DNA of 64,000 bases. Origin: Clostridia bacterium. GTDB lineage: Bacteria > Bacillota > Clostridia > Oscillospirales > CAG-272. This document shows, in pieces, positions 1,769 to 39,950 of this stretch. The notes beneath the pieces were generated by a model that saw only the letters and a program-made list of their open reading frames with translations, ran no database searches and had not been told where the DNA came from. The position numbers were made by a program, and so were the translations under genes. The stretch is from NCBI GenBank assembly GCA_017416185.1, contig JAFQDF010000033.1:92634-156633 (forward strand), written 5' to 3'. Within the stretch, counting starts at the first letter, position 1. Each line of letters starts with the position of its first letter.

Positions 1769-1774
1769 ATAGAT

Positions 1775-2743: not shown

Positions 2744-2767
2744 AAACTCACCTGCATATTGTTGTAT

Positions 2768-2834
2768 ATATCAGTATTAGCCATATAAATGTTGCCCGTC
2801 ACACACCACGAGGCGGTTCTGATATCAGTGTGAC
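2768..2834 (-). ncRNA. HDV-like self-cleaving ribozyme candidate (copy A)
   Basis: P1 GUCACAC/GUGUGAC, P2 AUAUCAG/CUGAUAU, P3 ACC/GGU, L3 GCCUCGU, GGGCAAC after P1, short P4 CAU/AUG, J4/2 GCUAA with putative catalytic C; G instead of U at first L3 position. Confidence 0.7.
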
Positions 2835-2835
2835 C

Positions 2836-2853
2836 CCCCTGCAAAAGCAGGGG
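2836..2853 (-). other. GC-rich hairpin between surface-protein stop codon and ribozyme A
   Basis: CCCCUGC-UUUU-GCAGGGG with no downstream U-tract on the coding strand. Confidence 0.7.
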
Positions 2854-2869
2854 TTGAAAAGACAGTTAA

Positions 2870-5800: not shown

Positions 5801-7477
5801 ATAGTTCTTCTTTCCAAAGAATCTGTACGCAAAATGACCGTTTGCACGTGTATCGCGGATGAACCATCCGTAAGGCTCACCTTCAGCGGGAGCTACTTCG
5901 GGGTCAACGTCAACAAGGAACTCACCGTCTTCGAAGTCGTAAGCAATCTCAGATGCTTTACCGAAACGGATCTCAGCAGTAACCGCTTTATCTGTCTGTC
6001 CGCAGATAACTGCTGTAACGGTACCGCCGGTCAGACCTGTGCTTTCATCGCATGCGGTAAACATATCACCATTGATTGTACCAAGATTTTCATCAGACAG
6101 AGTATAAACTATATCTTCATCTTCATATGCAACGGTATTGAAACCATCGTTAGTTGTTACTTCTATGGGAAGAGCTATAGAATCACCATATCCGATAACA
6201 ATTGTATCTGTCTTGAAAGAAATATCGGGAAGTACTATTGTGATTGAAGCTTCTCCAACCACATTACCGTTATATACCATTTGAGCGGTAACTTTACCTT
6301 CCTTACCATTGGATGTAAATATGCCATTTTCGATAGTACCAAAGGATTCGTCAACCAGCTGCCACTCTACATCTTCGGGAATATCTGCGGTTGTACCAAC
6401 AGCATCAGTACCTACAGCATTAAATACAACGTTAGAACCGGGTGTATAGTATTCGCTATCTGTGGTTATATGAGCACGAACAAACTCACCATTTGCGGGA
6501 GCAGTAGAAATAAAAAGAATACCGGAAGTGGTAGGACGTTCCGAACCGTCGGAGGGAGAGTTGTTAACCTTAAGCTCCTCACCGGGACGCTGTGAAAGGA
6601 AGGTAGATGTTCCGCCACCGTCACAGTTAACAGCATAGGAGCAGCCCAGATCAGCCATAACCTCAGCCAGCTCCTTCAGATTCATACCTTCAGAATAGGG
6701 GGTCTGACGACCATCATTTTCCATAATTACAACAGTACCATCGTCCTTGATACCTACGACAGAACGGGGTGCGGAGCTGGTGGCATAGTCACCGGTCGCA
6801 CTAACCACACCATTCTTAAGAATATAACCGCTGGAACAAGGGATGACCTGATCTTCCCAACCGTCGAGATCAGCGGCGGATGTGATCTGAGGCATCTCAA
6901 CCTTAGGGATATCATCAGGTCTGGGATTGCCGTTTTCGTCAAAATCCTTGTTAATAACAAGAACGGACGGGAAGCCTACCTTACCATAGGTATATCCACA
7001 ATTTGCGGGGTCAAAAAGAATCTCTGCATCGAGCATAATGAAGCCGAGAGGTTCACCTACACGATCTGCAGAATAACCGGTATACCAGCTAAGTGTGGTG
7101 TTCATAGCACCTACAACGTTGCCGTAGCCGTTTGCCTCAGCATACGCTGCCTGCTCGGACATAGTTCCGGTCTTGTAGTCACCATACTTAGGCACCATGC
7201 CGTTATAGCTGTTGATAACCTTAACGTATTCGTTATTAAGGTCAGCTTCCATAACATGAATGACCTGACGGTAAGTTCCGGCATCGTTATTTAATACGAT
7301 CTCGGATTCAGAAATACCGGGAGCTATTTCCCAGTCTTTCTTGCTGATGAGTTTGTAGTATCCGTCGTCGCTGATATCAAAATCAACGGCTGCAAAGAGC
7401 TGCAGGGGCATTATGCCGACAAGCATAAGTGCCACAAGCATACAGGACACTACACGTTTGAAAGAAGTGTTTTGCAT
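2870..7477 (-). CDS. Large secreted surface protein (~1535 aa): signal peptide, phosphodiester glycosidase (NAGPA-like) domain, aromatic-rich cell-wall-binding-like repeats
   Basis: GGAGG RBS before ATG 7477 (MQNTSFKR..., hydrophobic signal peptide); APRSVVG, DGRQ, NCDGGGTS motifs; duplicated C-terminal module (GLVGDYYYI..YYGLVEHEG.FYYVND). Confidence 0.8.
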   Translation of the reverse strand: MQNTSFKRVVSCMLVALMLVGIMPLQLFAAVDFDISDDGYYKLISKKDWEIAPGISESEIVLNNDAGTYRQVIHVMEADLNNEYVKVINSYNGMVPKYGDYKTGTMSEQAAYAEANGYGNVVGAMNTTLSWYTGYSADRVGEPLGFIMLDAEILFDPANCGYTYGKVGFPSVLVINKDFDENGNPRPDDIPKVEMPQITSAADLDGWEDQVIPCSSGYILKNGVVSATGDYATSSAPRSVVGIKDDGTVVIMENDGRQTPYSEGMNLKELAEVMADLGCSYAVNCDGGGTSTFLSQRPGEELKVNNSPSDGSERPTTSGILFISTAPANGEFVRAHITTDSEYYTPGSNVVFNAVGTDAVGTTADIPEDVEWQLVDESFGTIENGIFTSNGKEGKVTAQMVYNGNVVGEASITIVLPDISFKTDTIVIGYGDSIALPIEVTTNDGFNTVAYEDEDIVYTLSDENLGTINGDMFTACDESTGLTGGTVTAVICGQTDKAVTAEIRFGKASEIAYDFEDGEFLVDVDPEVAPAEGEPYGWFIRDTRANGHFAYRFFGKKNYTPVGMDIPAQVYLVDRDSGMVRNGNYAMGVDIDWTNVTASCHGQMDLFLPESLDLTDATKIGFWMYIPAELVTASMNVNAGFRTTDGGSARVDHQLTAYLASNTGIDNGGWYYFSWDVLDTYSTFEYIQINSHYTAGTGSYNYYQDVTYYIDDITVDYSDATIDRENPYFTSMTIADDYTNGVEVDGQTITTNTIDLMAQAYENTTKTNATGLNRNSVKLYVDGVQSTAAIFTAVNGTIAVSDLYLNDGVHTLVMEISDNQGNVGNIVRKLVVNTDKSAVRLEVPAATGLIPTGSIYWLNLVADNLADVDSVTTTINLDYVNDWELEGMEVAYGFEAEYYINNHNDAVITFTRTGTEIADTTVLAKLPVRIWMAKGWMDDSGIRKDYISNDPAKQDKYYILTPHAMWYSDGTRDYRLVVGAEAGVVTYTDGTTETFSANETVLQTEMNRYYTNANRQNKWSFHICTPGEAESKAPTCTETGYANRVFCTACACGSVENLGAECDTHNGCGSVIDWGTTVPATGHIYTVVEGVLACACGATYTKNGLVTFGDTSYYVVAGNLVSGWQLIEDEWYYFDTTTYANVATYNNGYVTFEFEATGKLISGQWYHTSSGSRYYYGPTYYTGRYGAARWYEIDGKQYCFPVDGYCYKGIRFVDDDNNEQYEWYDFGTDGAMISTYTQDGPFTVDGKLYYVVDGLSSVGLRKIDGAYYYFTSGNYRCAVSNTTRNCDIVYCDLPAGTYTFGADGKMVDKALQTVDGVLYYFELGNISTAVDSYEIDGVSYVVDETGKVLYSGLYTDAFGVENYYKDGVTATRNGLVGDYYYIDGVRVGAYYGLVEHEGDFYYVNDGGKIIKNIRKYVNKTNGLTFADGTPVPQAYYDFDADGKMVIEADEPDTPDTPVLNGLVGDHYYINGVMVGNYYGLVEHEGNFYYVNDNAKIIKDVRKYVNKTNGLTFADGTPVPQAYFEFDEDGKMIIEK

Positions 7478-7505
7478 GTGGTTTTCCTCCATATAAAAAT
7501 TTTTA

Positions 7506-8354
7506 TTATATAAACCGCTTAGCGGATTTATATTCTTGTTTGATGTACTCGGTATAAGACTTTTGGGTGTCGCACACCTCATACACATGATGACTGATCT
7601 GCTTTTCCTTGGAAAGCTCAGCTCTCCAGTCACCATACTTTTGGGTTAAGTATTCATCATATTTTTGCGGTATACGAACGTTGAGTCCTTCAAACTCTGC
7701 CCAGATTCCTTCACCATATTGTTCACGTGGTGCATATTCCAGCTCGCCCTGCCAATTTCCGTGATTGCACCATATTTCGGATTTCTCCAGCTGCCATCGG
7801 GATAAATAATTTGTCAGCTTCTCTGCGGTAGCATTGGTTTTTCGATGAAATCCAAACAATCGAAAAACCGATAAAAGCGCCTTTGTTAATGCTTTTTGCT
7901 CGTTATTATTTTTACATGATGAAATCATCAACAGTTTCAACAGTTTCTTTTTCTTTTCAAAACGCTTTATCATCCCGTGTTCGGACGGATATCCGTCAAG
8001 AGGAAATATGTCAATGTATATACCATGATTAATAGGCAAATCTGCAGTAGGGGTTTCTATAAACGCTGTTCTTGAATCTCTAAGCTTAGAATATATTGTA
8101 GGAAAGGCCGGGTCTGTTTTGTAATTCTGCAAAAAATAATACTCGGGCAACATTTTCTGCGCATTTTCACAGAAGATCTCATAATCTCTACGGGGTAACG
8201 CTATATCAATATCATCATCCCACGGAACAAATCCCTTATATTTCACAGCACCTATAACAGATCCGCATACCATATAATAGACAAGTCCCAACTCATCGCA
8301 TATGCCAAGTACTTGCTTGAGCATATTCAATTCAATTTCTTGTACCTCTGTCAT
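7506..8354 (-). CDS. licD: LicD-family phosphotransferase
   Basis: GSVIGAVKYKGFVPWDDDIDI, IDIFPLD, YLTQKYGDW. Confidence 0.88.
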   Translation of the reverse strand: MTEVQEIELNMLKQVLGICDELGLVYYMVCGSVIGAVKYKGFVPWDDDIDIALPRRDYEIFCENAQKMLPEYYFLQNYKTDPAFPTIYSKLRDSRTAFIETPTADLPINHGIYIDIFPLDGYPSEHGMIKRFEKKKKLLKLLMISSCKNNNEQKALTKALLSVFRLFGFHRKTNATAEKLTNYLSRWQLEKSEIWCNHGNWQGELEYAPREQYGEGIWAEFEGLNVRIPQKYDEYLTQKYGDWRAELSKEKQISHHVYEVCDTQKSYTEYIKQEYKSAKRFI

Positions 8355-9546
8355 ATACCCTCCTATACAGGTCTATATACTCTGCATATCTGTCATCCTT
8401 GTTAAATGAACGCGCTCTTTTAAGACAGTCTTCTGAAAAACTATACTTTTCTGAACAAAAATACTCTATAGTATCAACGAGTGTGGGAATACTATCAATC
8501 ACTCTGCCGCAAGTATCGTCTATAATCTCCTTGCTACCACCAACATCATAGGTAATCACAGGAGTTCCGCAAGCGAGTGCTTCCATATTAACAGTAGGAT
8601 AATTTTCTTCTCTCGATGCATTAATCACCACATCTGCTGCAGTATATAGCTGTGCAAGTTCCTGTTGATTCTGTGTGCGATTGATAGATATAATATCCCG
8701 AGGTAGCATCTTCTCCGTCATATAATCGGTTCCGACCAACACTATCTGATATTCAGAGGAATCCAATTTTGCGGCGAGCTCCACGAATCTGTCCAGCCCT
8801 TTGCGGTAACCCCAATCGAAAGCAACCCCAAGAAGCATCTTTTTGTCTATTGGAATACTATATTTATCCTTTATACACGATTCGATAGGTCTGAATGTTT
8901 TAAGATCTATTCCATTGTTGATAATTTCAATGGGACAACCACCAAGAAATGACTTTCTTACATAAGAGGCCAACCACGCCGAAGGAGTAACTACTGTCAG
9001 ATCTACAGCGCAAAACAACGTCTTTTTCTTTTGATATAGGTATCGGCTTCTATCAAAGAAGAAGCTATGATCGCGACGTTGAGGACATCTTTCACATCCG
9101 GATTTCCATTTATCGCATTTTGCTATGGTGAAATGAGGGCAGTATGCGGTAAACGCCCAACAATCGTGAAATGTCCATACAACCTTAATTTTTTTAGTTT
9201 TGAAATACTCAAATAACATTTTCAGGTTACAGTCATGACCGTGTATATTATGTAGATGAACTATATCAGGATTAAACATCTCCAGCTCTGCAATCATCTT
9301 TTGGGTAGAAGATATAGAATTGAATCCATAATTCCCAAGCAATCGGGATTTTATTGCTTGATATCTTATATATTTTTTGTCGGCACATTTAATTGAATAT
9401 TCATAATCGCTGTTTTCCGAGCAATAGAGTATCCTATTATCTATCCCATTATCAGTTAAGCAGACACTTATTTCCTTACATATTTTCCCCGTGCTGCCTA
9501 CACCACATACGGAATTTATCTGAACTACCTTCATTCTTATCTCCAA
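8332..9546 (-). CDS. Glycosyltransferase family 4 (start possibly 9534)
   Basis: GSTGKI, HLHNIHG, WTFHDCW, ENYPTVNME. Confidence 0.85.
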   Translation of the reverse strand: MEIRMKVVQINSVCGVGSTGKICKEISVCLTDNGIDNRILYCSENSDYEYSIKCADKKYIRYQAIKSRLLGNYGFNSISSTQKMIAELEMFNPDIVHLHNIHGHDCNLKMLFEYFKTKKIKVVWTFHDCWAFTAYCPHFTIAKCDKWKSGCERCPQRRDHSFFFDRSRYLYQKKKTLFCAVDLTVVTPSAWLASYVRKSFLGGCPIEIINNGIDLKTFRPIESCIKDKYSIPIDKKMLLGVAFDWGYRKGLDRFVELAAKLDSSEYQIVLVGTDYMTEKMLPRDIISINRTQNQQELAQLYTAADVVINASREENYPTVNMEALACGTPVITYDVGGSKEIIDDTCGRVIDSIPTLVDTIEYFCSEKYSFSEDCLKRARSFNKDDRYAEYIDLYRRVYDRGTRN

Positions 9547-10598
9547 AAAAACACATACGGGTAAATATTGAGGCTTCCCCCATGAATGAGATTGTAATAA
9601 AAGTACAATACAAAAAAGGCAGATATACCTAACACCGCAGTGTCAATTATATGTTTTAAGGCCGGCTTTCTGTTTATTGCAATCTTCGGCATTAAAACAG
9701 GTATAAAAATGAGATAATAATAATTTAATCTCATTGCCAAAGGATTAACTGATGCAAAACATTGCAAGCACACGCTTAACAGAAGCAAATTTCGTAATGC
9801 TTTGGTATCTTTATCAAGTGATTCTTCAACCGGAACTATATAGCAAAAAATAACAAACACGACCAGTAACATTAGTACGGTATATGCTCCTGTCTGCTCT
9901 ATTTCTCCAACGTACATATCACTGATAAATTTAACAAGAAAAGAAAAGATCTGTTCGTTAAATATTAAAACAACGCCTATAAATGGAACAGCAAACCATA
10001 TTCTGCGTCCGGTTATGTTTACATTACACATAGGATACATCGGCAAAAGAATAAACGCCGATCTGTGAAACATAAAGGCCAAGAAAACCATCAATAAGAA
10101 CATAATCGGTCTTTTGTTCCTTGAATAATTAAAAGCCGGTATGGCAAAAGCCATTGCGATAATTTGACGCATTCCTGAAAAATACATAGAAAAGGGAGAA
10201 ACCGCCAAGAAAAGGGCAATTGTCAGGATAGGAATTTCACTTTCTTTTTTATAAAAATCCCATATAGGAAATATGGCAAAGGAAGAGACCAATAATAAGA
10301 ACCATCTGAAATTTACAGATAATCCTGATAATATCTTTTGAAGTATCAAATACCCATGTTCCCATTCTGCATCAAGTATAAATATTTTATTCCAGCTCAT
10401 ATTTCGAGCTGCATCATAATAAGCCTTGTAACCATATGTATCATTGCCGATATTCAAATCTCGACATACCAATAAAAACAGAAATATCAAATAAAATACT
10501 GTTATTACAAGGATGTTACATTTCTTTTTTTCGGTTTTATTATTAAACGCCAAACCTGTCAATAAAGGAAAACAGACCAGCATCAGATACGGAATTAT
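9537..10598 (-). CDS. wzy: EpsG-family polysaccharide polymerase (Wzy); start codon uncertain
   Basis: Multi-TM; R..IGNDT..Y, E.GY, FSGMRQ.IA, FHRSA motifs; paralog of 48978-50096. Confidence 0.8.
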   Translation of the reverse strand: MIPYLMLVCFPLLTGLAFNNKTEKKKCNILVITVFYLIFLFLLVCRDLNIGNDTYGYKAYYDAARNMSWNKIFILDAEWEHGYLILQKILSGLSVNFRWFLLLVSSFAIFPIWDFYKKESEIPILTIALFLAVSPFSMYFSGMRQIIAMAFAIPAFNYSRNKRPIMFLLMVFLAFMFHRSAFILLPMYPMCNVNITGRRIWFAVPFIGVVLIFNEQIFSFLVKFISDMYVGEIEQTGAYTVLMLLVVFVIFCYIVPVEESLDKDTKALRNLLLLSVCLQCFASVNPLAMRLNYYYLIFIPVLMPKIAINRKPALKHIIDTAVLGISAFFVLYFYYNLIHGGSLNIYPYVFFWR

Positions 10599-11563
10599 AG
10601 CAACACACCCCTTAACTTTACCTTTACCCTCTTGAAAATTGCATAATATATTTTTCGGAATATAGGTCTTATTCTGCCATATAATCCAATCATCTGTAAT
10701 TTCCAAATTTCATATAAACCAAACAGCTTACAGTTTTTTCCTCGCGCAATACATTCTTTTACCACAGATGGATTATCGTAGATAGCGTTATACTTTGCAA
10801 AATAATACAGAATGTTTTGCTGATCATTACTGATTCTACATATATCATTCATCACCGCTGCGCCAAGTTTTTCACAATCACTGTGGAACAGGTCCCTTCT
10901 TGTATTGGTTAACTGTGCGTTATGTACTCGCGATTGTACATCCTTATTTACAATACACTTCAATTTGTAACCTTTGAGAAATATCCTAATCCACATCAAA
11001 AAATCCTGACAATAACGCAATTCCTCGTCAAACAACCCACTATCATCAAAAGCTTTCTTAGGAATCAATAAAGCGCAACCGTTAAAACACCCTTGCTGTA
11101 ACAAAGCAATAAGTGCCTCTCGATGATTCAAATCCTTTTCCTCTTGAAAACGGTATTTATCCCGAACATCTTCAAGTCTTTCTGACTTGGAGTTAATAAG
11201 ATACCTTCCGCACATAACCACTGTATCATCGCACGCATATGACATTTGATGTGCTATTTTATTTGGACCGTATACGTCATCATGGGACAGCCAAGAAAAA
11301 TACTCTCCCTTCATATTGCGTATACCTTCATTAAGTGCAGTGGAAACCCCGCCGTTTTCTTTAAGTATGTATCTTATTTTATCGCCGTAGGAACGAGCAA
11401 CACGGTCGGTTTCTCCGTCGTCTCTCGATCCGTCGTTCACAACGATGATCTCACAGTTTTTATATGTCTGTGCAAGGGCGCTGTCTATTGCCTCACGCAT
11501 ATAGTTTGCACCATTATACACTGGGATTATTATTGATACTAACGGCATATTAATGTCTGACAT
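10595..11563 (-). CDS. Glycosyltransferase family 2
   Basis: VSIIIPVYNG, VNDGS, NGGVSTALNEG, LSHDD. Confidence 0.9.
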   Translation of the reverse strand: MSDINMPLVSIIIPVYNGANYMREAIDSALAQTYKNCEIIVVNDGSRDDGETDRVARSYGDKIRYILKENGGVSTALNEGIRNMKGEYFSWLSHDDVYGPNKIAHQMSYACDDTVVMCGRYLINSKSERLEDVRDKYRFQEEKDLNHREALIALLQQGCFNGCALLIPKKAFDDSGLFDEELRYCQDFLMWIRIFLKGYKLKCIVNKDVQSRVHNAQLTNTRRDLFHSDCEKLGAAVMNDICRISNDQQNILYYFAKYNAIYDNPSVVKECIARGKNCKLFGLYEIWKLQMIGLYGRIRPIFRKIYYAIFKRVKVKLRGVLL

Positions 11564-11572
11564 ATCTCTTCT

Positions 11573-12706
11573 TTATTCCTCAAAATAAATTCTGACCAGT
11601 TCTTTTTTTACTTCATTACAGGTATATTGAAATGCAATTTCCATACCCTTCGATCTCATTTCGCGACAAATTTCTTCATTATCCAAAAGATACATGATTT
11701 TCTTCGACAAAGAATCCGTATCGTTTTGATCAATAAGAACACCGTTTACTTCATTTTGTATTAGTTCTCTGTGCCCCCTATTATAAGTTGCTATAACCGC
11801 ATTCCCGCTCAACATAGCTTCAACAATATTGAGGGGAAGGCCTTCTCTTTTACTACACGACACTGCAATATCACTTGCCTTTTGATACTCCTCAAGATTG
11901 GTAACATACCCGATCAGCTTTACGTTGTTCTCAAGCTCAAGGCTCTTAATAAGGTTCTCGAGGTTTTCCCTTTCGGGTCCATTACCTGCAAGAAGTAATA
12001 CTACTGAAGGAAATTCTTCCACCACCATTTTCATTGCTTTTATGGCTATGCTCTGGTTCTTGTTAGGTAAAAGCTCTCCAACGCAGATAATATATCTATT
12101 ATCTGTTTTCAAACCAAGCTTTTCTTTAATTGCTACTTGTTCGGCTGCGGATACGGGATAATATCTCTTCGGGTCTACTCCCACGCCGTAAATATGCTCT
12201 ACCTTGCAGGAAAATCTTTCCTTTGCCAGGATATAATCTTCCTTGTTTATTGTAATCAATATGTCCGTCTTACGAGCAAAGAGCTTTTCGATGGGGTAAT
12301 ATATTATCCAGTTAAGCTTTGCCGCTCCATTGTAAAAATGGAAACCGTGAGCAGTATATATGACCTTGCAACCTTTTTTTCTTGCTTTTTTTGCAGCAAG
12401 ACGGGTAACTATGCCGCCCATAGGTGTATTGCAGTGAATAATATCGTAATTTTCTTCGCTTATTATTTTCTTAAGCTGTTTGTACGCCTTGATATTATCC
12501 GTACTTTTTGGAGAACGGGAAAAGGGAATGTCATAGACCTTGTCAACAAAATCCAGCTTGAGACCGTTTTTCTCGGCAAGATTGTTTCTTGCAGCCACGT
12601 GTATCTCAACGTCACCCTGTTCTCTCAGCATCTCGACCAGAGGCTTGTGAAACTGACATATATGGCTTTGTACAGTTGCCGTCAGTAAAACCTTACGCAT
12701 TTTCAA
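11573..12706 (-). CDS. Glycosyltransferase family 4 (EpsD/CapM-like)
   Basis: HCNTPMGG, YTAHGFHF, REGLPLNIVEAM; paralog of 52441-53565. Confidence 0.88.
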   Translation of the reverse strand: MKMRKVLLTATVQSHICQFHKPLVEMLREQGDVEIHVAARNNLAEKNGLKLDFVDKVYDIPFSRSPKSTDNIKAYKQLKKIISEENYDIIHCNTPMGGIVTRLAAKKARKKGCKVIYTAHGFHFYNGAAKLNWIIYYPIEKLFARKTDILITINKEDYILAKERFSCKVEHIYGVGVDPKRYYPVSAAEQVAIKEKLGLKTDNRYIICVGELLPNKNQSIAIKAMKMVVEEFPSVVLLLAGNGPERENLENLIKSLELENNVKLIGYVTNLEEYQKASDIAVSCSKREGLPLNIVEAMLSGNAVIATYNRGHRELIQNEVNGVLIDQNDTDSLSKKIMYLLDNEEICREMRSKGMEIAFQYTCNEVKKELVRIYFEE

Positions 12707-13595
12707 ATTCCTTAAAATTATTTATTATCAAAGTGTTTAATCTGTAGCTGTTATTCTCCCCAACAAAGCTGTTATGGGGAGTTACGATTACATTTTCCAT
12801 ATTCCAAAGAGGGCTGTCAGCCGATAACGGTTCCTCTTCAAAAACGTCAAGCACCGCACCGTACAGACGGGGCAGTTCCTTTATAAGTGCCTCGGTGTCA
12901 ACAACACCGCCCCTTGCTATATTGACAAGCACCGCAGAATCCTTGAGCAGTGCCAGTCTTTCTGAATTTATAATATGACAGGTCTCTTCGGTCAAGGGAA
13001 GTGTCAAAACCAACACATCACATTCCGATATGACCGGGTTAAGCTCGTCAAGTGAGCATATTTTTACATAATTTTCATCCTCGCGGGGGTAAAGGTCAAC
13101 ACCCACTACTCTCGTTCCGAATGCCTTGAATCGCTTGGCACACTCGGTGCCTACGCTGCCGCAGCCTAAGATACAGACTGTTTTTCCATTCAGCTCTCTG
13201 AGTCCTCTGTTTTTTATCCAGCTTTGGTTTTTTTGGTTATCCCAAAAGAAACGGGATTGCTTGTAAAGCTCCAGCACTCCGGCAACGGCAAACTCTGCCA
13301 TAGGGATACTGTATACCCCTCCGGCATTGAATATGCGTATACCCTTGTCACGGATATACTCCAGATCAACACGGTCATAGCCTGCACTTGTAAGCTGTAT
13401 GTATTTTAAATTTTTGAATTCTTCTATCTGATGATGCAGGAACAGACCGTTACAGATGACCGCCTCATAACACCCGGCGGCATCGGGAAGGGCATCCTTT
13501 TCGTTCTGAAGAAGATCGACCCTGTGTCCCATGTCGGTCAGTATTTCCGCACACTCTCTGTGCGCCTGTAATGCTCCCGTTATCAAAAACCTCAT
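12693..13595 (-). CDS. D-isomer-specific 2-hydroxyacid dehydrogenase
   Basis: GCGSVG Rossmann motif, NIARG, LDVFEEEPL, TPH. Confidence 0.88.
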   Translation of the reverse strand: MRFLITGALQAHRECAEILTDMGHRVDLLQNEKDALPDAAGCYEAVICNGLFLHHQIEEFKNLKYIQLTSAGYDRVDLEYIRDKGIRIFNAGGVYSIPMAEFAVAGVLELYKQSRFFWDNQKNQSWIKNRGLRELNGKTVCILGCGSVGTECAKRFKAFGTRVVGVDLYPREDENYVKICSLDELNPVISECDVLVLTLPLTEETCHIINSERLALLKDSAVLVNIARGGVVDTEALIKELPRLYGAVLDVFEEEPLSADSPLWNMENVIVTPHNSFVGENNSYRLNTLIINNFKEFENA

Positions 13596-13614
13596 TTACA
13601 AATACCTTAATCGT

Positions 13615-14451
13615 CTATGCGATATCCCTTGCTATACGGGTTATAATTTCAGCTGTCCGAAGTTTATTATTTTCCCATTCCTCGGGATGTGACTCGCAGT
13701 ATGCCTCGTAATCTCTTATTTCGCGTAAACCTTCATCAAAGATACGCTTTATATGCTCTGTATCCGTAACTATGTCACAGTTACAGAAACTTCTCGACAG
13801 TATGGCTCTTTGTGAGCCCAAGCGGTAATGCTCCATTATTACATGCTCGCAGGGCAACATTCCCTTTCCGAGTGCCGCAATACCGCCGAAGCCGTAGGTT
13901 ATACCCTTATCTCTGCATTTGCGGCAGATATTCTCCACCGTACCGTCTGCAAGTAGCTCGAACATGAATTTTTTACCCAACGCAAGACTCATATCATTAA
14001 GTCCTATGTGTATCTCGTCGATTCCGTCAATTTCAAGTATCTCATCAAGACACTCCGCCGCCTCGGGAGTTTCCACAAGCAAAAACACAGTTGCTCTGCC
14101 TGCAACGATTCCCACAAAGCGCCTGACCTCATCTGCCGTTTTGAAATATGGCAGCATGACTACGTCCGCACCTGCCCTGATAACGGCATCTATCTCCTCC
14201 TCGCTTGAGGAGTATTCCTCTGTTGCATCGTGGATGGGATTGACACGGACCATAAGTTCGCTTTTGTCAAGATGCTTTCTCAGTTCAGCCACGTCGGAGA
14301 CGGTATGACGGCATTGAACCGTATTCATTCCGCCCTGTCTTAGCTGCTTGCCGATATATTCCATATCCACAAATATCCTATCCACTCCCGCAGCCTGTGC
14401 TATACAGGCTATCTCGGGACGGTTGGTTATATACATTAATTTTAATGACAT
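13615..14451 (-). CDS. HpcH/HpaI aldolase / citrate lyase family protein
   Basis: IFVDME, VRVN, VMLP, VETPEA, IHIGLNDMS. Confidence 0.82.
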   Translation of the reverse strand: MSLKLMYITNRPEIACIAQAAGVDRIFVDMEYIGKQLRQGGMNTVQCRHTVSDVAELRKHLDKSELMVRVNPIHDATEEYSSSEEEIDAVIRAGADVVMLPYFKTADEVRRFVGIVAGRATVFLLVETPEAAECLDEILEIDGIDEIHIGLNDMSLALGKKFMFELLADGTVENICRKCRDKGITYGFGGIAALGKGMLPCEHVIMEHYRLGSQRAILSRSFCNCDIVTDTEHIKRIFDEGLREIRDYEAYCESHPEEWENNKLRTAEIITRIARDIA

Positions 14452-14457
14452 AGCTAT

Positions 14458-15108
14458 CTACTTTAACACTTCGTCTTTGTTATCAGAAACCGATTCGGTA
14501 CTGTCTTTTTTCACCGTTGCACCAACGTTTTCGTTATCGGCGTTTGAAAAGACCTTGAAGAACGTAAGGAAAAATATTTTGATATCCAGCCACATAGTCA
14601 TATGGTCAACATACCAGACGTTCATCTTTATTCTTTCGTTCCATTCAACGCATTTTCGTCCGTGAATCTGCGCCCAACCTGTGATTCCCGGTCTTACCTC
14701 AAACATTCTGAACTGCTCTTCGGTATACTCTTCTACAGCCCAGGGATGATATGTAAGGGGAGGACGGGGCCCGACGAAGCTCATATCGCCCTTCAGTATA
14801 TTCAAAAGCTGCGGAAGTTCGTCGATACTGGTGGCACGTATGATCTTACCCACGCGGGTAACGCGGGAATCATTTTTCCCTGAATATACACCCGAGCCGC
14901 TATGCTCCGAATTGATTTTCATACTGCGGAATTTGTATATTTCAAATACCTTTCCGTCCCTGCCGACCCTTTTCTGCTTGAATATAACAGGTCCGGGAGA
15001 ATCTATCTTGATGATCAAAGCCACGATCAACATCGGAATTGCCAAAATGACAGTTGCAATACCTGACAACAGCAGGTCTAACACTCTTTTGATAAATTTC
15101 TTATACAC
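14458..15108 (-). CDS. Priming sugar transferase (bacterial sugar transferase family)
   Basis: KFRSM, RATSIDELPQL.N.LKGDMSFVGPRP, RPGITGWAQ; GTG start at 15108 after GGAG. Confidence 0.92.
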   Translation of the reverse strand: MYKKFIKRVLDLLLSGIATVILAIPMLIVALIIKIDSPGPVIFKQKRVGRDGKVFEIYKFRSMKINSEHSGSGVYSGKNDSRVTRVGKIIRATSIDELPQLLNILKGDMSFVGPRPPLTYHPWAVEEYTEEQFRMFEVRPGITGWAQIHGRKCVEWNERIKMNVWYVDHMTMWLDIKIFFLTFFKVFSNADNENVGATVKKDSTESVSDNKDEVLK

Positions 15109-15266
15109 TTCGAATTCTCCTAATCTACATACCAACCTCAAAGTTGTACACGTTGCCCGGTTCTAAATAATCATAATTTTTCTCATTTGTGACATCGGTT
15201 TTTTAGAATTTCCAGTATCTTTTTGAGAATCCGTTTCGTTGTTCTTAGTATTTTTATCGTCCATCT

Positions 15267-17558
15267 TCAGACCCCTATTGCCATTAACATTTTTGTCTGC
15301 CTTGGAGTAAGTTTTTTATCGCTTTTTCCGTTAAGTCGTTTCCTCTGTTCATAAAGCCAACGGTAGAGCCATACCCCCCCGCAAACATAATCGGAAGGAA
15401 TATTCGTATGTCCGTGTTCGTTATAGTAATCCTTTACCAACAGGTATTTTTCTTCCCACTGATCAGTAGACTTCCAATTCATTCCGATAAGATCCAGCTT
15501 TTGCTTTCTTTCGGGTGCAAGAGTACCCTTTTCGTACGTCTCACGCTGGAGTCTCAACCATCTGCCTATACGCAAGCCTTCGGGAGTTTCGTATGCTACG
15601 GGAATATTAAGATGTCCGTTTGCTTTTTTATAAGCACAAACTGCGGCATAGTTTTTTTGCCAAATTATGTCCTGCTTATTTCCCCACAGCATACCAAGCT
15701 CGTCCAGTCTACGTTTCTGCTCCTCGGTAAGCTTAGCTCTGTTGTTTTGGTCCTTCATAGCAGCACGAAGAGAATATATCCATGCACCGAGACGTATACC
15801 GTCTTCATCTGTATATGCAGCAGGAACGTCAAGATCTCCGTACTCTCTGTGATATCTCAAAGCTGACTGAAAATTACGTTCCCACAGATAGTCAACGGCA
15901 CTCCATACCATACCTATCTTCTCTAACGCTTCCACACGCTCGGGCGTAAGGTAAGCGGTTTTGATACCGTTTTTTCGGTAACTTCGGAGATTGGCTATCC
16001 ATGAACCGAGATCAACACCGCAATAATCCTTCTCGGCAATATTCACCACTAGATCTCCGTGCTCTGCATAATACTTACAGGCTGCCGAATAATACCTCTC
16101 CCAGGCCATATCCTTTACACTTTTCCATGAAAAGCCTATAGCTTCTAATTTAGCTGTCTGCTCATCGGTCAGCTTTCCTCTGACTTTACCCTCATGGACG
16201 AGCCGTTGTGTAGCAAGCCAGGAACCCAAGGTATAACCCTCTGAAGTTACATATCTTTTCGGAACATCCAGATTACCGTTTTCATCAAAGTATCTTTTCG
16301 CAGCTTCATACATAAGATCCCAGGAAGCTCCCAGGGTATCATTGAGCCTATCAAAAAGCTCTCTGCAATCTCTGACCTCGTCCGTTATTTTGAAATGCTC
16401 GTTTACTATATCGTCTTCGCACCCCAAAGAGCGGTAATAGGAGGTTGCTATCTGCATCTCCTCCTCTATGGCGTCGATGCTGTAAAGATTATCAATATTC
16501 AATACGATATCGAATATGACGGCAGACTCATTCCTGCCTGCAGCGAGAGCTCTGCCTATCTGCTGCTTGTATACTATGGGCGATACCGTAGGACGAAGAA
16601 GAATCACTCCGCTTATATCATCAACGTGTACGCCCTCGTTAAGCATATCGATACAGAACAAAAGCTTGATATGCTTACTTGTATCCTTCTTAAAAGCCGC
16701 AAAGCTGGCATCGGTTTCCGGATCGTCCGAATACGCCTTATAAATATGGGGCTCGTTGTCTATGTTCTTAAACCATTCCCTCGCCAGCTCAACCATACTG
16801 CACATATGATCGTAGTCCGCGCAGAAGACAAGATACTTGCCTGAACGGTCTGTTATATGCTTTTCAAAAATTTCATCTATACCCTCAGACATTTCGAGGG
16901 TCCTACGTAATGCATCCAGATACTTTTGCCCCTCATCACGTACCGCCTTGTTTTTAGCAGAACGTACCCGATGCTCGTATCTCTTCAGCTGCTTTTCATA
17001 AGCAAACACGGCTAAAACATACTTTGGAGGTGCAAGAATTCCCTTTACGACAGCCTCTCCTAAGGTCATATTGCTTGCAACACAACCGTCAAAAAGCTCA
17101 TCAGCCATATTTCTTTGATTATCAAGATATCTGACAGCCGTAGCAGATAAGCCGAGGATAGGCGTATCGGGATACGTCTGCAATAACGTATCCACTCCAC
17201 CGCCCCACATCTTAGCGCCGCAACGGTGAAACTCGTCCAATATAATGTAGTCGGGTTGTATCTGCATAAGCTCTTCTTCGCCTATATTCATAAGCTTGGC
17301 ATAGGTAAAAAAGATGATATTATCGGGGACATAACCGTCAGAGCATCTACGGAGATTATCTAACTGAGTCTTGAATATGTATTCGGAAGGAGATAACCAA
17401 CATATACGTTTGTCCGGATTATCCTCACAGAGCTTAAATCCGATAAATGACTTGCCGGTTCCGGTAGGATGAACAACAGCGGCTTTGCCGGTCTTTTCCA
17501 GCATAGCGACAGCGCTATGATAAGCATCACAATTATGCTTGAATAAGTCTATTGCCAC
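15267..17558 (-). CDS. Superfamily-2 (DEAH/ResIII-like) helicase with C-terminal helicase-associated (HA) repeats
   Basis: PTGTGKS, DEFH, SAT, QQIGRA; about five Trp-rich repeats (W...Y..A..Y...HG.L.VP..Y....G..LG.W...QR). Confidence 0.85.
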   Translation of the reverse strand: MAIDLFKHNCDAYHSAVAMLEKTGKAAVVHPTGTGKSFIGFKLCEDNPDKRICWLSPSEYIFKTQLDNLRRCSDGYVPDNIIFFTYAKLMNIGEEELMQIQPDYIILDEFHRCGAKMWGGGVDTLLQTYPDTPILGLSATAVRYLDNQRNMADELFDGCVASNMTLGEAVVKGILAPPKYVLAVFAYEKQLKRYEHRVRSAKNKAVRDEGQKYLDALRRTLEMSEGIDEIFEKHITDRSGKYLVFCADYDHMCSMVELAREWFKNIDNEPHIYKAYSDDPETDASFAAFKKDTSKHIKLLFCIDMLNEGVHVDDISGVILLRPTVSPIVYKQQIGRALAAGRNESAVIFDIVLNIDNLYSIDAIEEEMQIATSYYRSLGCEDDIVNEHFKITDEVRDCRELFDRLNDTLGASWDLMYEAAKRYFDENGNLDVPKRYVTSEGYTLGSWLATQRLVHEGKVRGKLTDEQTAKLEAIGFSWKSVKDMAWERYYSAACKYYAEHGDLVVNIAEKDYCGVDLGSWIANLRSYRKNGIKTAYLTPERVEALEKIGMVWSAVDYLWERNFQSALRYHREYGDLDVPAAYTDEDGIRLGAWIYSLRAAMKDQNNRAKLTEEQKRRLDELGMLWGNKQDIIWQKNYAAVCAYKKANGHLNIPVAYETPEGLRIGRWLRLQRETYEKGTLAPERKQKLDLIGMNWKSTDQWEEKYLLVKDYYNEHGHTNIPSDYVCGGVWLYRWLYEQRKRLNGKSDKKLTPRQTKMLMAIGV

Positions 17559-17577
17559 TGTTTTCCCTCCTTCCTGT

Positions 17578-17605
17578 ATGCAACGTAATTTACATTATGT
17601 TACAT
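17578..17605. repeat. Left recombination site (dif-like 11-6-11)
   Basis: ATGCAACGTAA-TTTACA-TTATGTTACAT; core 17582-17601 is a 19/20 inverted match to 17873-17892. Confidence 0.8.
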
Positions 17606-17693
17606 TGGGTTTTGTCAACGATAATCCCGTTTCAATCGAATATCTACAAAATCATCACATTACAGGATATTAATTGGCAAAAAACAAAAATAA

Positions 17694-17749
17694 GCATAAC
17701 AATGCTACCCTTATTTTTGAAAGAATCAAAATAAGGGCATTTGTTATGC
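17694..17749. other. Long imperfect hairpin inside the invertible segment
   Basis: GCATAACAATG..CCCTTATTTT / AAAATAAGGG.CATT.TGTTATGC. Confidence 0.6.
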
Positions 17750-17797
17750 CTTGAAACATTATGTATAATCAACGGTTTCCATTTAATGAAAAAACTC

Positions 17798-17826
17798 TTG
17801 ATTTTTATTAAGAATGATGATATAAT
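17798..17826 (+). promoter_or_regulatory. Sigma-A promoter inside invertible segment, currently pointing away from cluster 1
   Basis: TTGATT-17 nt-TATAAT with extended -10 TG. Confidence 0.72.
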
Positions 17827-17868
17827 TTATTTGGGGTATTGGCGATACCTGTAGTTTTTATGCAATTT

Positions 17869-17896
17869 TTTCAACATAATGTAAATTATGTTTACC
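17869..17896. repeat. Right recombination site (dif-like 11-6-11)
   Basis: TTTCAACATAA-TGTAAA-TTATGTTTACC; 6-bp spacer is the reverse complement of the left spacer. Confidence 0.8.
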
Positions 17897-17897
17897 C

Positions 17898-17919
17898 GGG
17901 TGCTTCGGCATCTTTTTTT
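17898..17919 (+). terminator. Intrinsic terminator just outside right inverted repeat
   Basis: GGGTGC-TTCG-GCATC followed by T7. Confidence 0.7.
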
Positions 17920-17920
17920 G

Positions 17921-18739
17921 TTATATTACCAAATGCATATTTTCCATTTTTCTTCGATGTTCGATTCCTGTCGTTATAATATATATTCTTGTAGTATTGA
18001 TATTGGAGTGACCGAGGATATCGGCAAGCTTAACGATGTCCTTTTCTATTGAATAGAATATTCGGGCAAACAGATGTCGTAAATTATGCGGAAAAACCTT
18101 ACGACTGTCAACCCCGGCAGCATCGCATACACTTTTCATACTTCGCCATACGGTCACACGGCACAAAGGTATGCCGTTGGAGTTTACAAATATAGGTCCT
18201 GCAGCTATTCCTTTGTCCTTAGCATAACGAAGAAGCTGCTGCTTTAATCTTTCTACAATAAATACGGTTCTCGACTTACCCTTGCATTTTACGGTTACAC
18301 AACCCTGTCGAACTCCCTCTACCGTTATATATTTCAACTCGCTGATACGTATCCCCGTACCGCAAACGGTCTGAAATATCAGATAGAGTCGGATATTGTT
18401 TTGTCTTTTTGCTTCGTTTAACAGCCGAAAATATTCCTCTTTAGACAGCTCTTTGTCCTCGGAGCAATATATTTCCCTCTGTATTTTGAATTGACGCACG
18501 CACAATTCGGCTCTGCCGATGAATTTAAGATACGAATTCAAGGCTGCAATCATCGAGTTGGCAGACCTTGGGGTATATTTCCTTTCAAGCTCCGCCTTAT
18601 ACTCAAGGATCAACTGCTTGTCCAACGTTTTACCGTCCGAAAATTCGGCAAACTTTTTTACATCTCTTATATATTTTTCGATAGTCAGCTCGCTTTTTTC
18701 GTCTTCATAAAGAAAGGTTCTGTACTCGGCAATTTTCAT
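17921..18739 (-). CDS. Tyrosine recombinase (XerC/D-like site-specific invertase candidate)
   Basis: TGIRISEL, KGKSR, HNLRH, LGHSNINTTRIY catalytic motifs; GGAGG RBS before ATG 18739; lacks arm-binding N-terminal extension. Confidence 0.92.
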   Translation of the reverse strand: MKIAEYRTFLYEDEKSELTIEKYIRDVKKFAEFSDGKTLDKQLILEYKAELERKYTPRSANSMIAALNSYLKFIGRAELCVRQFKIQREIYCSEDKELSKEEYFRLLNEAKRQNNIRLYLIFQTVCGTGIRISELKYITVEGVRQGCVTVKCKGKSRTVFIVERLKQQLLRYAKDKGIAAGPIFVNSNGIPLCRVTVWRSMKSVCDAAGVDSRKVFPHNLRHLFARIFYSIEKDIVKLADILGHSNINTTRIYIITTGIEHRRKMENMHLVI

Positions 18740-18927
18740 GTTTTTACCTCCGTAAAAATCTTTTGCATAAGATAACAAAACAGGAACTATTCCCAAAATT
18801 GTTCCTGTTGCTCTGATTATATTTTAACACAAAAATAGCCGATTATTAATAATCAGCTCTTTATGAATTTATATTAGTGAACAATAATAAAAATATCGTA
18901 ATTTCTAATATAAAGCAAAAATGCATC

Positions 18928-18956
18928 TTGCATTCAAACCATACTTGGAGTATACT
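18928..18956 (+). promoter_or_regulatory. Sigma-A promoter for ECF sigma operon
   Basis: TTGCAT-17 nt-TATACT. Confidence 0.5.
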
Positions 18957-18985
18957 TGTAATATCAACAAATCGAGGTTTATTGT

Positions 18986-19537
18986 ATGACATTAGATACT
19001 GCAATGGATAAATATTATAACTCCATACACGCGTATATATACGGTAAAACAGGTAAAAACCAGAGTTTTGCTGACGAATGCAGTAACAGCGTATTCTTTA
19101 TTTTCTCCAATAAAGGACAAACATTGGATGATAATGCCGTGTATCCCTGGCTTATGAAAACAGCATCCAATAAGCTAAAGGAATATTACCGTAAACTGAA
19201 AAAGGAAAATATGGTTACGTATCTCGAGGATATAACGGTTATTCCTTCGTATGATACCGATCTGTCTGATCAGATGATTACGGATGCTGATATAGAAGAA
19301 GCCAAGGAAAAGCTTATTTCTCTTCTCTCTCCCAAAGACAGGGAAATGTATGAGTGTTATTTCGTGAAAAAGATGACCTATGTCGAAGTAGCTAAGAAAT
19401 TCGGAATAGACAGAAATACCGCATCGAAAAGATTACATATCATAAAGAAAAGACTTGAGGACGAAGCAAGAAAGATGTTTGCCGTGGGTGGAGCTATAAC
19501 GGTTTTCCGTATAATAGCCGCTCTGTTCAACAGATAG
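18986..19537 (+). CDS. ECF-type RNA polymerase sigma factor
   Basis: Region 2-like WLMKTASN..KEYYRK; region 4 HTH LSPKDR...MTYVEVAKKFGIDRNTASKRL. Confidence 0.75.
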   Translation: MTLDTAMDKYYNSIHAYIYGKTGKNQSFADECSNSVFFIFSNKGQTLDDNAVYPWLMKTASNKLKEYYRKLKKENMVTYLEDITVIPSYDTDLSDQMITDADIEEAKEKLISLLSPKDREMYECYFVKKMTYVEVAKKFGIDRNTASKRLHIIKKRLEDEARKMFAVGGAITVFRIIAALFNR

Positions 19538-19548
19538 GAGTATAAAAT

Positions 19549-20319
19549 ATGTATATAGAAAAGAAAAGGGCAGAGCTTGCCGATATTTGTTATATGACCA
19601 TAGAAAAAGAATGCTCTAAGCCTACAGAAGAAATAAATACCGCACTTATAGATGCTTGTATAGATCTCGCCAACAAGCTGCTTGATATCAAGCCTCTAAG
19701 CGAAGAAGAATTGCTGCGTGCAAAAAAGAAGATAGAAGCTATGGCTCTTCACCGCCGCAAAAAGAATCTTAAAATACGTATAATTGCTGCGATCTTAGCT
19801 ATCATTGTCGTATTAGTTACTACGGCATGTGCCTTTTCGGATTGGCTTGTTGGAATATTTGGAATCAATACTCTATACACTGTTCAGTCCGGGGAAAGCG
19901 TTACGGTAGAACAACACAAATTGGAGGCACCCTCAGATGTTCTCAACTTTGACAGTATTGATGATTTAGATGAGTATATCGAGGAACCGATATATCTTCC
20001 TATAGGATTGCCGGAAGAGTTTGTTTTAAGTAGTATAACGATGTATAAAGAAGAAACTTCACAAATCGAAATAATATGGACAAAAGAATCTCACAGAATA
20101 CGGTATAAAATCACTTTTGATCCCTCGTATTTTAATAAAAGTCGTTTCGATTTGCTTGAATACGAATATTACTCACAAGATGGCTATCCTTTTGATTGTG
20201 TTCAAATAACTTCGTATTGGCAAGCATCAAGTTGGATAAATGATAATGAATATGTTATATCAGCAGATAATACAGATCTGATAGAAGAAATAATAAACTA
20301 TGTGGTTGTTACACAGTAG
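19549..20319 (+). CDS. Putative membrane anti-sigma factor (DUF4367-like)
   Basis: Follows sigma gene; single TM after basic patch; P.YLP.GLPEEF and W motifs in extracellular part. Confidence 0.6.
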   Translation: MYIEKKRAELADICYMTIEKECSKPTEEINTALIDACIDLANKLLDIKPLSEEELLRAKKKIEAMALHRRKKNLKIRIIAAILAIIVVLVTTACAFSDWLVGIFGINTLYTVQSGESVTVEQHKLEAPSDVLNFDSIDDLDEYIEEPIYLPIGLPEEFVLSSITMYKEETSQIEIIWTKESHRIRYKITFDPSYFNKSRFDLLEYEYYSQDGYPFDCVQITSYWQASSWINDNEYVISADNTDLIEEIINYVVVTQ

Positions 20320-21115: not shown

Positions 21116-22288
21116 ATGGATAACGGTTTTAAAAGCGGTCTTGACGTGATATATCTTACCTCCTGTGCGCTTCACAACATAGTTCCGGATAAAAAGAGCG
21201 TTGAAGCAATGGATCTTTCGGCGGTGTTTGTCCAGGCAAAAAGGCATAAAATGCTCTCTGTGACCTGTATGGCGCTTGAGCCTTATTGGGACGAGCTTGA
21301 TCCTGAGCTTATGAAGGTGTGGAGACTGTCGGTAAATCGGGCGATAAAAAGCAGTCTTATGTATTCTGTGGAACGTGAAAAGCTCTTCAGATTTATGGAC
21401 AAAAACGAAATTGCCTATCTTCCCCTAAAGGGTATTATCCTCCAGAACATTTATCCTAAGCTTGGTATGCGGCAGATGGTAGATAACGATATACTTATCG
21501 ATATCAACAAACGTGATCTTGTACGTAATTATATGGTCAATAACGGTTATAAGGTTGACGGTTACGGCAAGGATATCCACGACGTGTATGTAAAGTCTCC
21601 CTTCTTCAACTTTGAGATGCACGTATATCTGGCGATAGAATCTGTAGATGCCGTATTCTATAATTATTATCTCGACGTTTGGCAGAGACTTGAAAGACCG
21701 GACGAAAATAAATACGAGTTCAGGTTTTCGATTGAAGATTTTTATATCTATATTCTTGTTCATGCATACAAGCATTTTAATTATACCGGTGGCGTGGGAC
21801 TCAAACCTTTAACAGATATTTTTGTCTACCTTCGCAAATACGGTGAAAGTTTTAATAAACGGTATCTTGCCACGGAGTTAGAAAAAATAAAACTTACCGT
21901 TTTTGAAAAAAACATACGCTCTTTATCCCAAAAAATATTTGATATTGATGCCGCAAGAGAAAATCGTATTGCAGATATCCTCAATGAGGAAGAAAAACAA
22001 CTGCTGAAATTTTTTATTGATTCGGGAAGCTTCGGAAATAAAAACGTATTATACAGAGGAATGATAGAGAAATTTGCCAACGGCGACGGTAAGATAACCA
22101 AATCCGGAAAGGCGAAGTATATAATTAACAGGCTCTTTCCCACAGGTCCGTACGTTAAGGAAAACTATCCGTTTTTTCACCGTCATAAAGCACTTCTTCC
22201 TGTTATGTGGGTGTATAGATTCTTCTCGAAAATATTTGTAAAATTCAAACACGTATGTAAACAAATAAGATTTATAAGTAAGCAATAA
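21116..22288 (+). CDS. Uncharacterised nucleotidyltransferase family protein (NTP_transf_5-like)
   Basis: LPLKG...YP..GMRQMVDNDIL, FEMH, HAYKH; paralog of 57821-58996. Confidence 0.8.
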   Translation: MDNGFKSGLDVIYLTSCALHNIVPDKKSVEAMDLSAVFVQAKRHKMLSVTCMALEPYWDELDPELMKVWRLSVNRAIKSSLMYSVEREKLFRFMDKNEIAYLPLKGIILQNIYPKLGMRQMVDNDILIDINKRDLVRNYMVNNGYKVDGYGKDIHDVYVKSPFFNFEMHVYLAIESVDAVFYNYYLDVWQRLERPDENKYEFRFSIEDFYIYILVHAYKHFNYTGGVGLKPLTDIFVYLRKYGESFNKRYLATELEKIKLTVFEKNIRSLSQKIFDIDAARENRIADILNEEEKQLLKFFIDSGSFGNKNVLYRGMIEKFANGDGKITKSGKAKYIINRLFPTGPYVKENYPFFHRHKALLPVMWVYRFFSKIFVKFKHVCKQIRFISKQ

Positions 22289-39880: not shown

Positions 39881-39950
39881 AAAGGATCTCCTTTCCGGTT
39901 TATATATTTCAAATTGACCGTTACAGGTAATTTGCAAACCCTCGGTTTGA

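Follow-up and report, generated by a model that had tools for sequence, protein, structure and literature searches.

A probable recombinase-linked invertible promoter upstream of a glycan gene array in a Clostridia bacterium

In a 64,000-nucleotide stretch of a Clostridia bacterium (Oscillospirales, CAG-272; assembly GCA_017416185.1, contig JAFQDF010000033.1, positions 92,634 to 156,633), here called the window, a tyrosine recombinase gene and an SF2 helicase gene that heads a long array of glycan genes are separated by a short non-coding segment bounded by two inverted sites. The question raised by this locus is whether the segment is a promoter that can be flipped towards and away from the glycan genes. 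Phase variation of surface glycans has been well studied in Bacteroides and barely in the uncultured Clostridia, which form a large share of animal gut communities. Our analysis indicates that the locus is, in all likelihood, a recombinase-linked invertible promoter (inverton) switching the glycan operon.

A repeat search of the window recovered the two 20-nt cores on which the original prediction was based. The left recombination site, on the helicase side (17582-17601; AACGTAA-TTTACA-TTATGTT; AACGTAATTTACATTATGTT), and the right one, on the recombinase side (17873-17892; AACATAA-TGTAAA-TTATGTT; AACATAATGTAAATTATGTT), form an inverted repeat with 19 of 20 positions matching (95% complementary) and 271 nt between them, and the single position at which they differ is 17585/17889. 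Each site is a 7-6-7 dyad, AACATAA-N6-TTATGTT, with perfect arms in the right site and six of seven positions in the left one, and the same arms are found in 88 related loci. The longer 11-6-11 dyad proposed at first was not borne out. The consensus arms of the family reach about 9-10 nt, but the outer bases of the window's own sites are asymmetric. Since the left spacer (TTTACA) is the exact reverse complement of the right one (TGTAAA), the sites lie in inverted orientation, as had been claimed. When the site was searched for with up to three mismatches, these were the only two places found in the 64-kb window, where 0.00 were expected from 100 shuffles. This geometry of the sites is established.

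Consensus scans of the segment and its borders located the rightward sigma-70-type promoter TTGATT-17-TATAAT that had been read from the letters (17798-17826, plus strand, 10 of 12 consensus positions, with a TG before the -10 box). This main predicted promoter points to the recombinase gene. A second promoter-like site of the sigma-70 type, which the first reading did not mention, was found on the same strand (TTGTTA-17-TATAAT, 17741-17769, also 10 of 12). Just outside the right site, where a terminator had been noticed before, the hairpin scan gave an outward terminator on the plus strand (17898-17920), consisting of a hairpin at 17898-17913 and a run of seven T, which is conserved in related loci. 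Both promoters read rightward into this terminator and therefore the window assembly appears to have been captured in the predicted OFF state. Inversion of the segment would bring the stronger of the two -10 boxes to 89 nt upstream of the helicase GTG, as computed from the window, in agreement with the 90 nt or so that had been estimated.

The family of the adjacent enzyme is also established. The gene at 17921-18739 (minus strand) encodes a Xer-like tyrosine recombinase of 272 aa, a predicted invertase, which was confirmed by Pfam (Phage_integrase, PF00589, 84.5 bits against a cut-off of 27.1, and an N-terminal SAM-like domain, Phage_int_SAM_1). Its ATG is preceded by GGAGG and its stop codon (17921-17923) is 28 nt from the right site, close to the 25 nt given in the original prediction. 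In an alignment of 15 sequences (A1), R131, K153/K155, H218, R221, H244 and Y253, which we take to be the canonical R-K-H-R-H-Y catalytic set, were invariant, as were E260, H261, R262, R263, M265, E266, N267 and M268 in a conserved C-terminal tail past the catalytic tyrosine.

The sites had been called dif-like, and this held in part. The CATAA...TTATG core is present, the best NCBIfam models of the recombinase were XerA_Arch (142.2 bits), XerD (117.4 bits) and XerC (109.8 bits), and its best solved relative was the XerA-type structure 4a8e (E 1.9e-25), while Fim-type NCBIfam models gave no match at E <= 1e-5. However, these scores fall below every Xer cut-off (220, 329.6 and 335.15 bits, respectively) and the switch is for this reason not a Xer/dif system; judged by its sequence, the recombinase is not a Xer chromosome-dimer resolution enzyme. 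The genome has four tyrosine recombinase genes in total, one of which (contig C14, 27276-27800) has a stronger Pfam score (128.9 bits) and could be its Xer.

Finding the segment in the other orientation was a test that the original prediction had named, and the existence of both orientations is now established from a related locus and suggested by metagenome contigs. The locus L005, from a public metagenome-assembled genome (MAG) of goat caecum, has a recombinase 94% identical to that of the window. Its flanks are collinear, the identity being 974 of 1000 nt next to the helicase gene and 884 of 1031 next to the recombinase gene. The L005 interior, corresponding to the 271-bp segment at 17602-17872, is flipped (229 of 275 aligned columns identical in the flipped alignment versus 172 of 324 in the unflipped one), and it is precisely at the two sites that the orientation changes. 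The TTGATT-17-TATAAT promoter of L005 faces the helicase gene, and the -10 box of its second promoter-like site reads TATGAT.

Contigs of four metagenome runs (X1 to X4) were placed on positions 17000-18500 of the window; X1 and X2 are the probable source runs, and X4 belongs to a different study. The X3 contigs left a hole at 17757-17827 within the segment. In X4, one contig ended with the final base of the left site (17601), another one began with the initial base of the right site (17873), and an interior contig ran from about 17586 to 17888, the bases flanking the sole difference between the sites. Two 44-nt contigs covered the two reference junctions at depths of 4.0 and 3.7, about half of what was seen in their neighbours (7.3-11.1). 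These breaks and short junction contigs are as expected for a graph of 31-letter words in which both orientations are present. The loose end behind 17892 agreed in 8/10 with the reverse complement of the helicase-side flank and in 0/10 with the reference continuation, and the loose end before 17873 agreed in 13/14 with the reverse complement of the end of the L005 interior, so that breaks and loose ends fit both junctions. The X4 depth in the right-hand bins (17816-17917) was above the sum of the listed contigs (21.9 versus 14.8, and 13.1 versus 11.7) and in the left bin it equalled that sum (14.4 versus 14.4).

Two scans of metagenome contigs added no orientation count for the window's locus, because the 27-nt helicase-side flank together with the site gave 0 matches, and the 21 loci obtained with the 20-nt right site did not, according to blastn, include the window's locus. 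Three of these 21 loci (L129, L133 and L139) had weak similarity to the recombinase gene, and L133 had an inverted pair of the right site. As a separate observation, a 233-nt contig of another locus in run X2 shares the 35-nt promoter core at 17797-17831, with three differences, and nothing of the flanks, which are unrelated; this core may recur in further switches or in other organisms.

The recombinase was searched for in species-representative genomes, which gave 30 loci, and 15 relatives were aligned to obtain A1. A search with A1 gave 588 confirmed relatives among 600 candidate stretches, 80 of which were retained, and the resulting census comprised 106 loci (L005-L030 and L035-L114; L031-L034 were omitted as distant or partial). 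Sites were called with the pattern ACATAA-N6-TTATGT and at most one mismatch per arm, so the near-invariance of the arms is partly built in. A pair of sites with exactly reverse-complementary spacers was found in 88 of the 106 loci and 52 distinct spacers were counted; the family consensus, including preferred outer bases, is acaACATAA...TTATGTtgt. No pair was found in 15 loci, 12 of which had the first site on a contig that ends less than 260 nt past the recombinase stop; two of the remaining three had full flanks and one site, and the last one had no site within 528 nt. The recombinase gene was missed by the motif in 3 of the 106 loci. The first site begins a median of 32.5 nt past the recombinase stop; interior lengths span 128-358 bp, with a median of 242 bp.

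In 70 of the 88 loci with a pair, the scan scored a predicted outward promoter of the same kind. By a simple consensus score, the best promoter faced the target at 18 loci and the recombinase at 52, and at 18 its direction was ambiguous. An outward terminator was found on the recombinase side in 68 of 86 loci and on the target side in 5 of 86. The whole module is conserved, in the order recombinase, outward terminator, site, promoter segment, site and target, and it has been assembled in either state. An internal terminator behind the promoter that would block read-through in the OFF state had also been considered as a general feature, and was dropped when internal terminators opposite the promoter proved not to be enriched (19 versus 15 of 70 loci). 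Some loci carry three or four copies of the site, about 26-85 nt apart (L006 with 2+2, L009, L011, L019, L020 with 1+3, L023 and L029); extra copies were present in 16 of the 88 census loci and would allow more than two arrangements.

The first downstream open reading frame (ORF) was scanned at 20 loci, and 14 had a Pfam match while 6 had none. Four targets were SPFH/zinc-ribbon proteins, two were BspA-type leucine-rich-repeat surface proteins and two were TetR regulators, and one each was a helicase-HA (helicase-associated) protein, a protein with a pectate-lyase-like adhesive domain, a subtilase, an NPCBM/TPR protein, a transglutaminase-like protein and a MACPF/Big_3 protein. In an even sample of the order, the recombinase family was detected at E <= 1e-60 in 67 of the 201 genomes, belonging to 51 of the 121 genera, with 1-12 copies each. 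For many of these copies the contig stops a few hundred bases away at most, on the switch side. A subclade represented by genomes G006 (L152-L154) and G090 (L140-L151) has 7-12 recombinase copies per genome and the arms ACATTA/TAATGT; this change of the arms along with the recombinase fits arms that are the binding sites of the enzyme and would be co-evolving with it. Several contigs of this subclade stop about 100-130 nt past the recombinase gene.

The same genome contains a second switch (G000 contig C14, 47095-48420; L004, 11096-12420), with a recombinase 63% identical to the one in the window and the same arms. Its sites, AACATAATCGACATTATGTT and AACATAATGTCGATTATGTT, have the spacer TCGACA/TGTCGA and enclose an interior of 199 bp, in which a promoter, TTGATT-17-TAATAT, points into the recombinase-side terminator. 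The predicted target is a 970-aa M23-peptidase/C-type-lectin protein (L004, 8159-11071, minus strand). No third site pair was found in the genome-wide scan. The spacers of the two switches differ at two positions (TTTACA versus TCGACA), which would keep them from recombining together, although such a difference is not universal. Genome G043 has three distinct spacers, but in G090 the spacer TTGATA is common to 8 of the 10 site-bearing stretches (12 were fetched, two of them without a site) and in G147 both loci share TCGGCA, the counterpart of TCGACA. The idea that spacers always differ between the switches of one genome thus does not hold for G090 and G147, and it survives as no more than a possibility.

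The helicase gene (15267-17558, minus strand) encodes a protein of 763 aa with ResIII and Helicase_C matches and five HA domains (288 bits in five stretches). Its GTG start at 17558 is preceded by GGAGG and lies 23 nt from the left site. Such a gene is an unusual one to open a glycan operon. Behind it, Pfam matches and the ORF layout gave 12 co-directional ORFs (3-15141, minus strand), encoding in this order Bac_transf (an initiating sugar transferase), an HpcH-like protein, a 2-hydroxyacid dehydrogenase, GT4, GT2, EpsG, GT4, LicD, a 1588-aa NAGPA-domain protein, GT2, GT4 and an incomplete product whose ORF runs off the window. The 13 co-directional ORFs are separated by short gaps or overlap, and a scan of the 125-nt gap between the helicase and transferase genes revealed neither a consensus promoter nor a terminator on the minus strand. 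Transcription of the helicase and glycan genes as one 17-kb unit is plausible from this layout.

A single-protein search found four helicase-HA relatives. One of them, L115, is the L005 locus itself, with a helicase 88% identical; two are in Lachnospiraceae MAG loci (L116, 2956-5370, and L118, 2956-5112), in which helicase-HA is directly followed by glycan genes (a DegT aminotransferase, Bac_transf and acetyltransferases), and no ACATAA-type switch was found upstream of either helicase. In L117, one downstream ORF was scanned, without a Pfam match, and no glycan gene was identified behind the helicase. To judge from these neighbourhoods, the helicase seems to belong to glycan loci; that it acts as a locus-specific transcription factor is a guess. 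A conserved stretch (cttcattacatt.cc.aa) is common to the leaders of L116-L118, right before the ribosome-binding site.

The switch may be pictured as follows. Four recombinase subunits would bind the four arms (AACATAA/TTATGTT) of both sites, cleave at the edges of the 6-bp spacers and exchange strands across them via a Holliday junction; because the spacers are in opposite orientation, this would result in inversion of the 271-bp segment. Tyrosine recombinases generally need identical spacers in partner sites, and this need would explain why the spacers co-vary within pairs and drift between loci. In the OFF state, the predicted promoter would read toward the 3'-end of the recombinase gene and the terminator would stop the transcripts before they enter it in antisense. 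In the ON state, transcripts would pass through the 20-nt site and then the leader of 23 nt before reaching the helicase-HA gene and probably the 17-kb glycan array, and the outcome would be a heritable and reversible ON/OFF, or high/low, heterogeneity of the surface polysaccharide. Flipping by the adjacent enzyme, activity of the predicted promoter and the gene array as a single transcription unit are the parts of this picture that we infer.

Several observations weigh against an invertible promoter that switches the whole operon. One arm position of the left site deviates from the consensus, with G for A. X1 and X2 each gave one contig straight through the locus in the OFF orientation; as contigs drop rare variants, these neither show nor exclude switching in those runs. 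The X4 contigs with inverted junctions are deduced from loose ends and depth, which are coherent with each other, and all 20 runs containing the locus are DNA runs, none of them RNA. The promoter and terminator calls come from consensus scans, which gave 13 promoter-like sites at 17300-19100 versus 8.1 +/- 3.3 in shuffled sequence. In addition, a weak promoter-like site with a TG (TTGCCA-18-GATGAT, 17680 to 17651, minus strand, 9 of 12) faces the operon in the assembled orientation, and a sense-direction terminator after the recombinase gene was found in 0 of 86 loci, so that OFF may be leaky. A terminator-like hairpin with a T-rich tail (17750 to 17736, minus strand) also faces the operon from inside the segment as assembled; both this hairpin and the weak promoter-like site lack conservation in L005 and show no enrichment across the family.

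Part of this evidence would suit a narrower role, in which the segment flips but sets the level of helicase-HA only, or shifts between high and low only, the glycan genes having promoters of their own. In its favour are the 125-nt gap behind the helicase gene, the weak operon-facing site in the OFF orientation, and an operon structure that is itself one that we infer. We nevertheless consider it unlikely, given the lack of a minus-strand consensus promoter or terminator in that gap, the close packing of the 13 co-directional ORFs, and the two Lachnospiraceae relatives, where the succession of helicase-HA and glycan genes (DegT, Bac_transf) suggests one unit. It is also improbable that the locus works in the manner of cwpV, with read-through from the recombinase gene upstream, an orientation that decides whether a terminator forms, and internal promoters that are irrelevant. 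The recombinase gene and the operon do lie on one strand with no sense-direction terminator after the former, the hairpin at 17750 to 17736 would be placed suitably, and the cwpV switch is described as working by such terminator formation (PMC2784873). However, the lack of enrichment of internal terminators opposite the promoter argues against it, and what is conserved is a predicted strong outward promoter 40-80 nt from the segment end together with the recombinase-side terminator (68 of 86 loci).

The locus might instead be the relic of a past inversion in one lineage, with no switching now in the strain of the window. This would account for the single orientation in X1 and X2 and for the arm mismatch of the left site, but we hold it to be very improbable: the gene for the recombinase is intact and retains every catalytic position, L005 has the identical arm mismatch and stands in the opposite orientation, and X4 shows signs of both junctions within one sample. 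Moreover, contigs end inside the switch in 12 of the 106 loci and 5 of 20 downstream stretches end about 100-130 nt past the recombinase gene, which is what mixed orientations do to assemblies. Finally, the sites could be dif-like elements serving the resolution of chromosome or replicon dimers, or boundaries of Xer-type modules (pdif modules), without any regulatory switch. The arms do share the dif core CATAA...TTATG (PMC2731167), and XerA, XerD and XerC are the best models of the enzyme. Yet the scores lie far below the cut-offs (142 versus 220, 117 versus 329.6 and 110 versus 335), the site pairs are inverted around a non-coding promoter segment beside the enzyme gene, such pairs number two in this genome while other genomes have up to 12 copies of the recombinase, and the genome has the other tyrosine recombinase gene of 128.9 bits as a possible Xer, so that this explanation is hardly credible. 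An invertible promoter in front of the glycan operon remains the reading we prefer.

Systems of this kind have long been known, and the switch in the window is a well-supported yet ordinary inverton, one of a large and sparsely described family in gut Clostridia. In E. coli, fimS is an invertible promoter of about 300 bp with the adjacent tyrosine recombinase genes FimB and FimE, which turns a surface structure ON and OFF. The window resembles it in having a short invertible promoter segment and an adjacent tyrosine recombinase; in contrast, fimS has two recombinases with directional bias, 9-bp repeats, IHF and Lrp, whereas one enzyme, 20-nt dyad sites and a terminator for the OFF transcript are seen here. 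Many capsule promoters of Bacteroides are flipped by one distant serine invertase (Mpi), Tsr recombinases are also known, and the first genes are upxY/upxZ. Invertible promoters before long polysaccharide operons in gut commensals are common to both cases, but here a dedicated tyrosine enzyme lies beside each switch and the first gene encodes an SF2 helicase-HA protein, and the phylum and promoter type are different. In the mycoplasmas, Xer1 of M. agalactiae is reportedly a Xer-like invertase acting at the vpma locus for phase variation of surface proteins, and the mpl genes of M. penetrans are controlled by inversion of small promoter segments. These share with the window a Xer-related enzyme and phase variation of surface proteins; they differ in lineage and sites, and there the enzyme of one gene serves many loci.

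RecV of C. difficile is reportedly non-adjacent and serves several switches. The cwpV switch of that species, likewise from Clostridia, uses a tyrosine recombinase, its invertible segment measures about 200 bp and its target is at the cell surface (PMC2784873), but the segment is described as lacking a promoter, OFF being due to a terminator in a transcript begun upstream (PMC2784873). The segment in the window has predicted internal promoters and, in the family, internal terminators are not enriched. The dif site consists of two half-sites around a 6-bp central region of strand exchange, and XerA is a single enzyme acting on both arms (PMC5357621); the predicted dif sites of Ehrlichia ruminantium and Bordetella pertussis read CATAA, six bases and TTATG (PMC2731167). 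The window's switch is similar in its arms around a 6-bp centre, the inner CATAA/TTATG, the use of one enzyme, as with XerA, and its nearest relatives in sequence and structure. It differs in the inverted site pairs beside the enzyme gene, with inversion and not resolution as the predicted outcome, in the spacer, which is hypervariable between loci, in the conserved C-terminal tail and in the scores below the cut-offs. Instead of one dif per replicon, two inverted pairs were found in the genome, each beside its own recombinase gene.

The closest published description concerns inverton group 139, linked to the tyrosine invertase group 35, of the defined gut community hCom2; 32 of the 33 invertons of this group are from the class Clostridia (PMC11892184). 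According to the main text of that study, nearly all of group 139 have a tyrosine recombinase gene within 5 kb, shifts of orientation were measured in culture passages (PMC11892184), and the interiors of the examples given (about 205 and 227 nt) are inside the 128-358 range found here. The same main text is without dyad core sites, co-varying spacers, an outward terminator, Xer likeness or a polysaccharide target (PMC11892184). Groups 139 and 35 may well be the same family as the window's switch, the comparison being one of main-text descriptions. Passages of the DeepInverton paper had nothing on the family (PMC11602134). In the literature searched, we found no description of the dyad sites, co-varying spacers or outward terminator of this family, and among the papers listed "dif-like" occurred solely in one on dif-site prediction, and none of those listed described such a switch.

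The compact design of one enzyme, two dyad sites, one predicted promoter and one insulating terminator recurs before many surface and regulatory genes. We tentatively suggest, with some doubt, that recombinase, outward terminator, dyad site, promoter segment and dyad site make up a portable and self-contained phase-variation cassette placed before unrelated genes. If this is true, the 6-bp spacer would be a freely evolvable address that keeps the switches of one genome apart, the family would be a natural set of orthogonal recombinase/site pairs, and much of the surface of uncultured gut Clostridia would be phase-variable. The natural spacer variants on constant arms could supply orthogonal recombination sites. 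The assemblies of these organisms break at such switches, and gene-content surveys will misjudge which surface structures get expressed.

Some further features of the window were recorded around the switch. A 28-nt palindrome (18821-18874) lies between the recombinase gene and a pair of ORFs at 18986-20319, the first of which is divergent from the recombinase gene and encodes a small sigma-70 family protein (region 4/ECF-like, 183 aa); the second, of 256 aa and without a Pfam match, is possibly its anti-sigma partner. Two paralogous NTP_transf_5 genes are located at 21116-22288 and 57797-58996. The second of these is divergent from a second glycan cluster, which is headed by Bac_transf (56918-57568, minus strand) and lacks this type of switch, and behind that cluster there are two giant ORFs of 2289 and 2566 aa; the spans recorded for these ORFs and the cluster are 32297-46926 and 46989-57568. 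Proteins with SLH and DUF4838 domains are encoded at 59033-63417.

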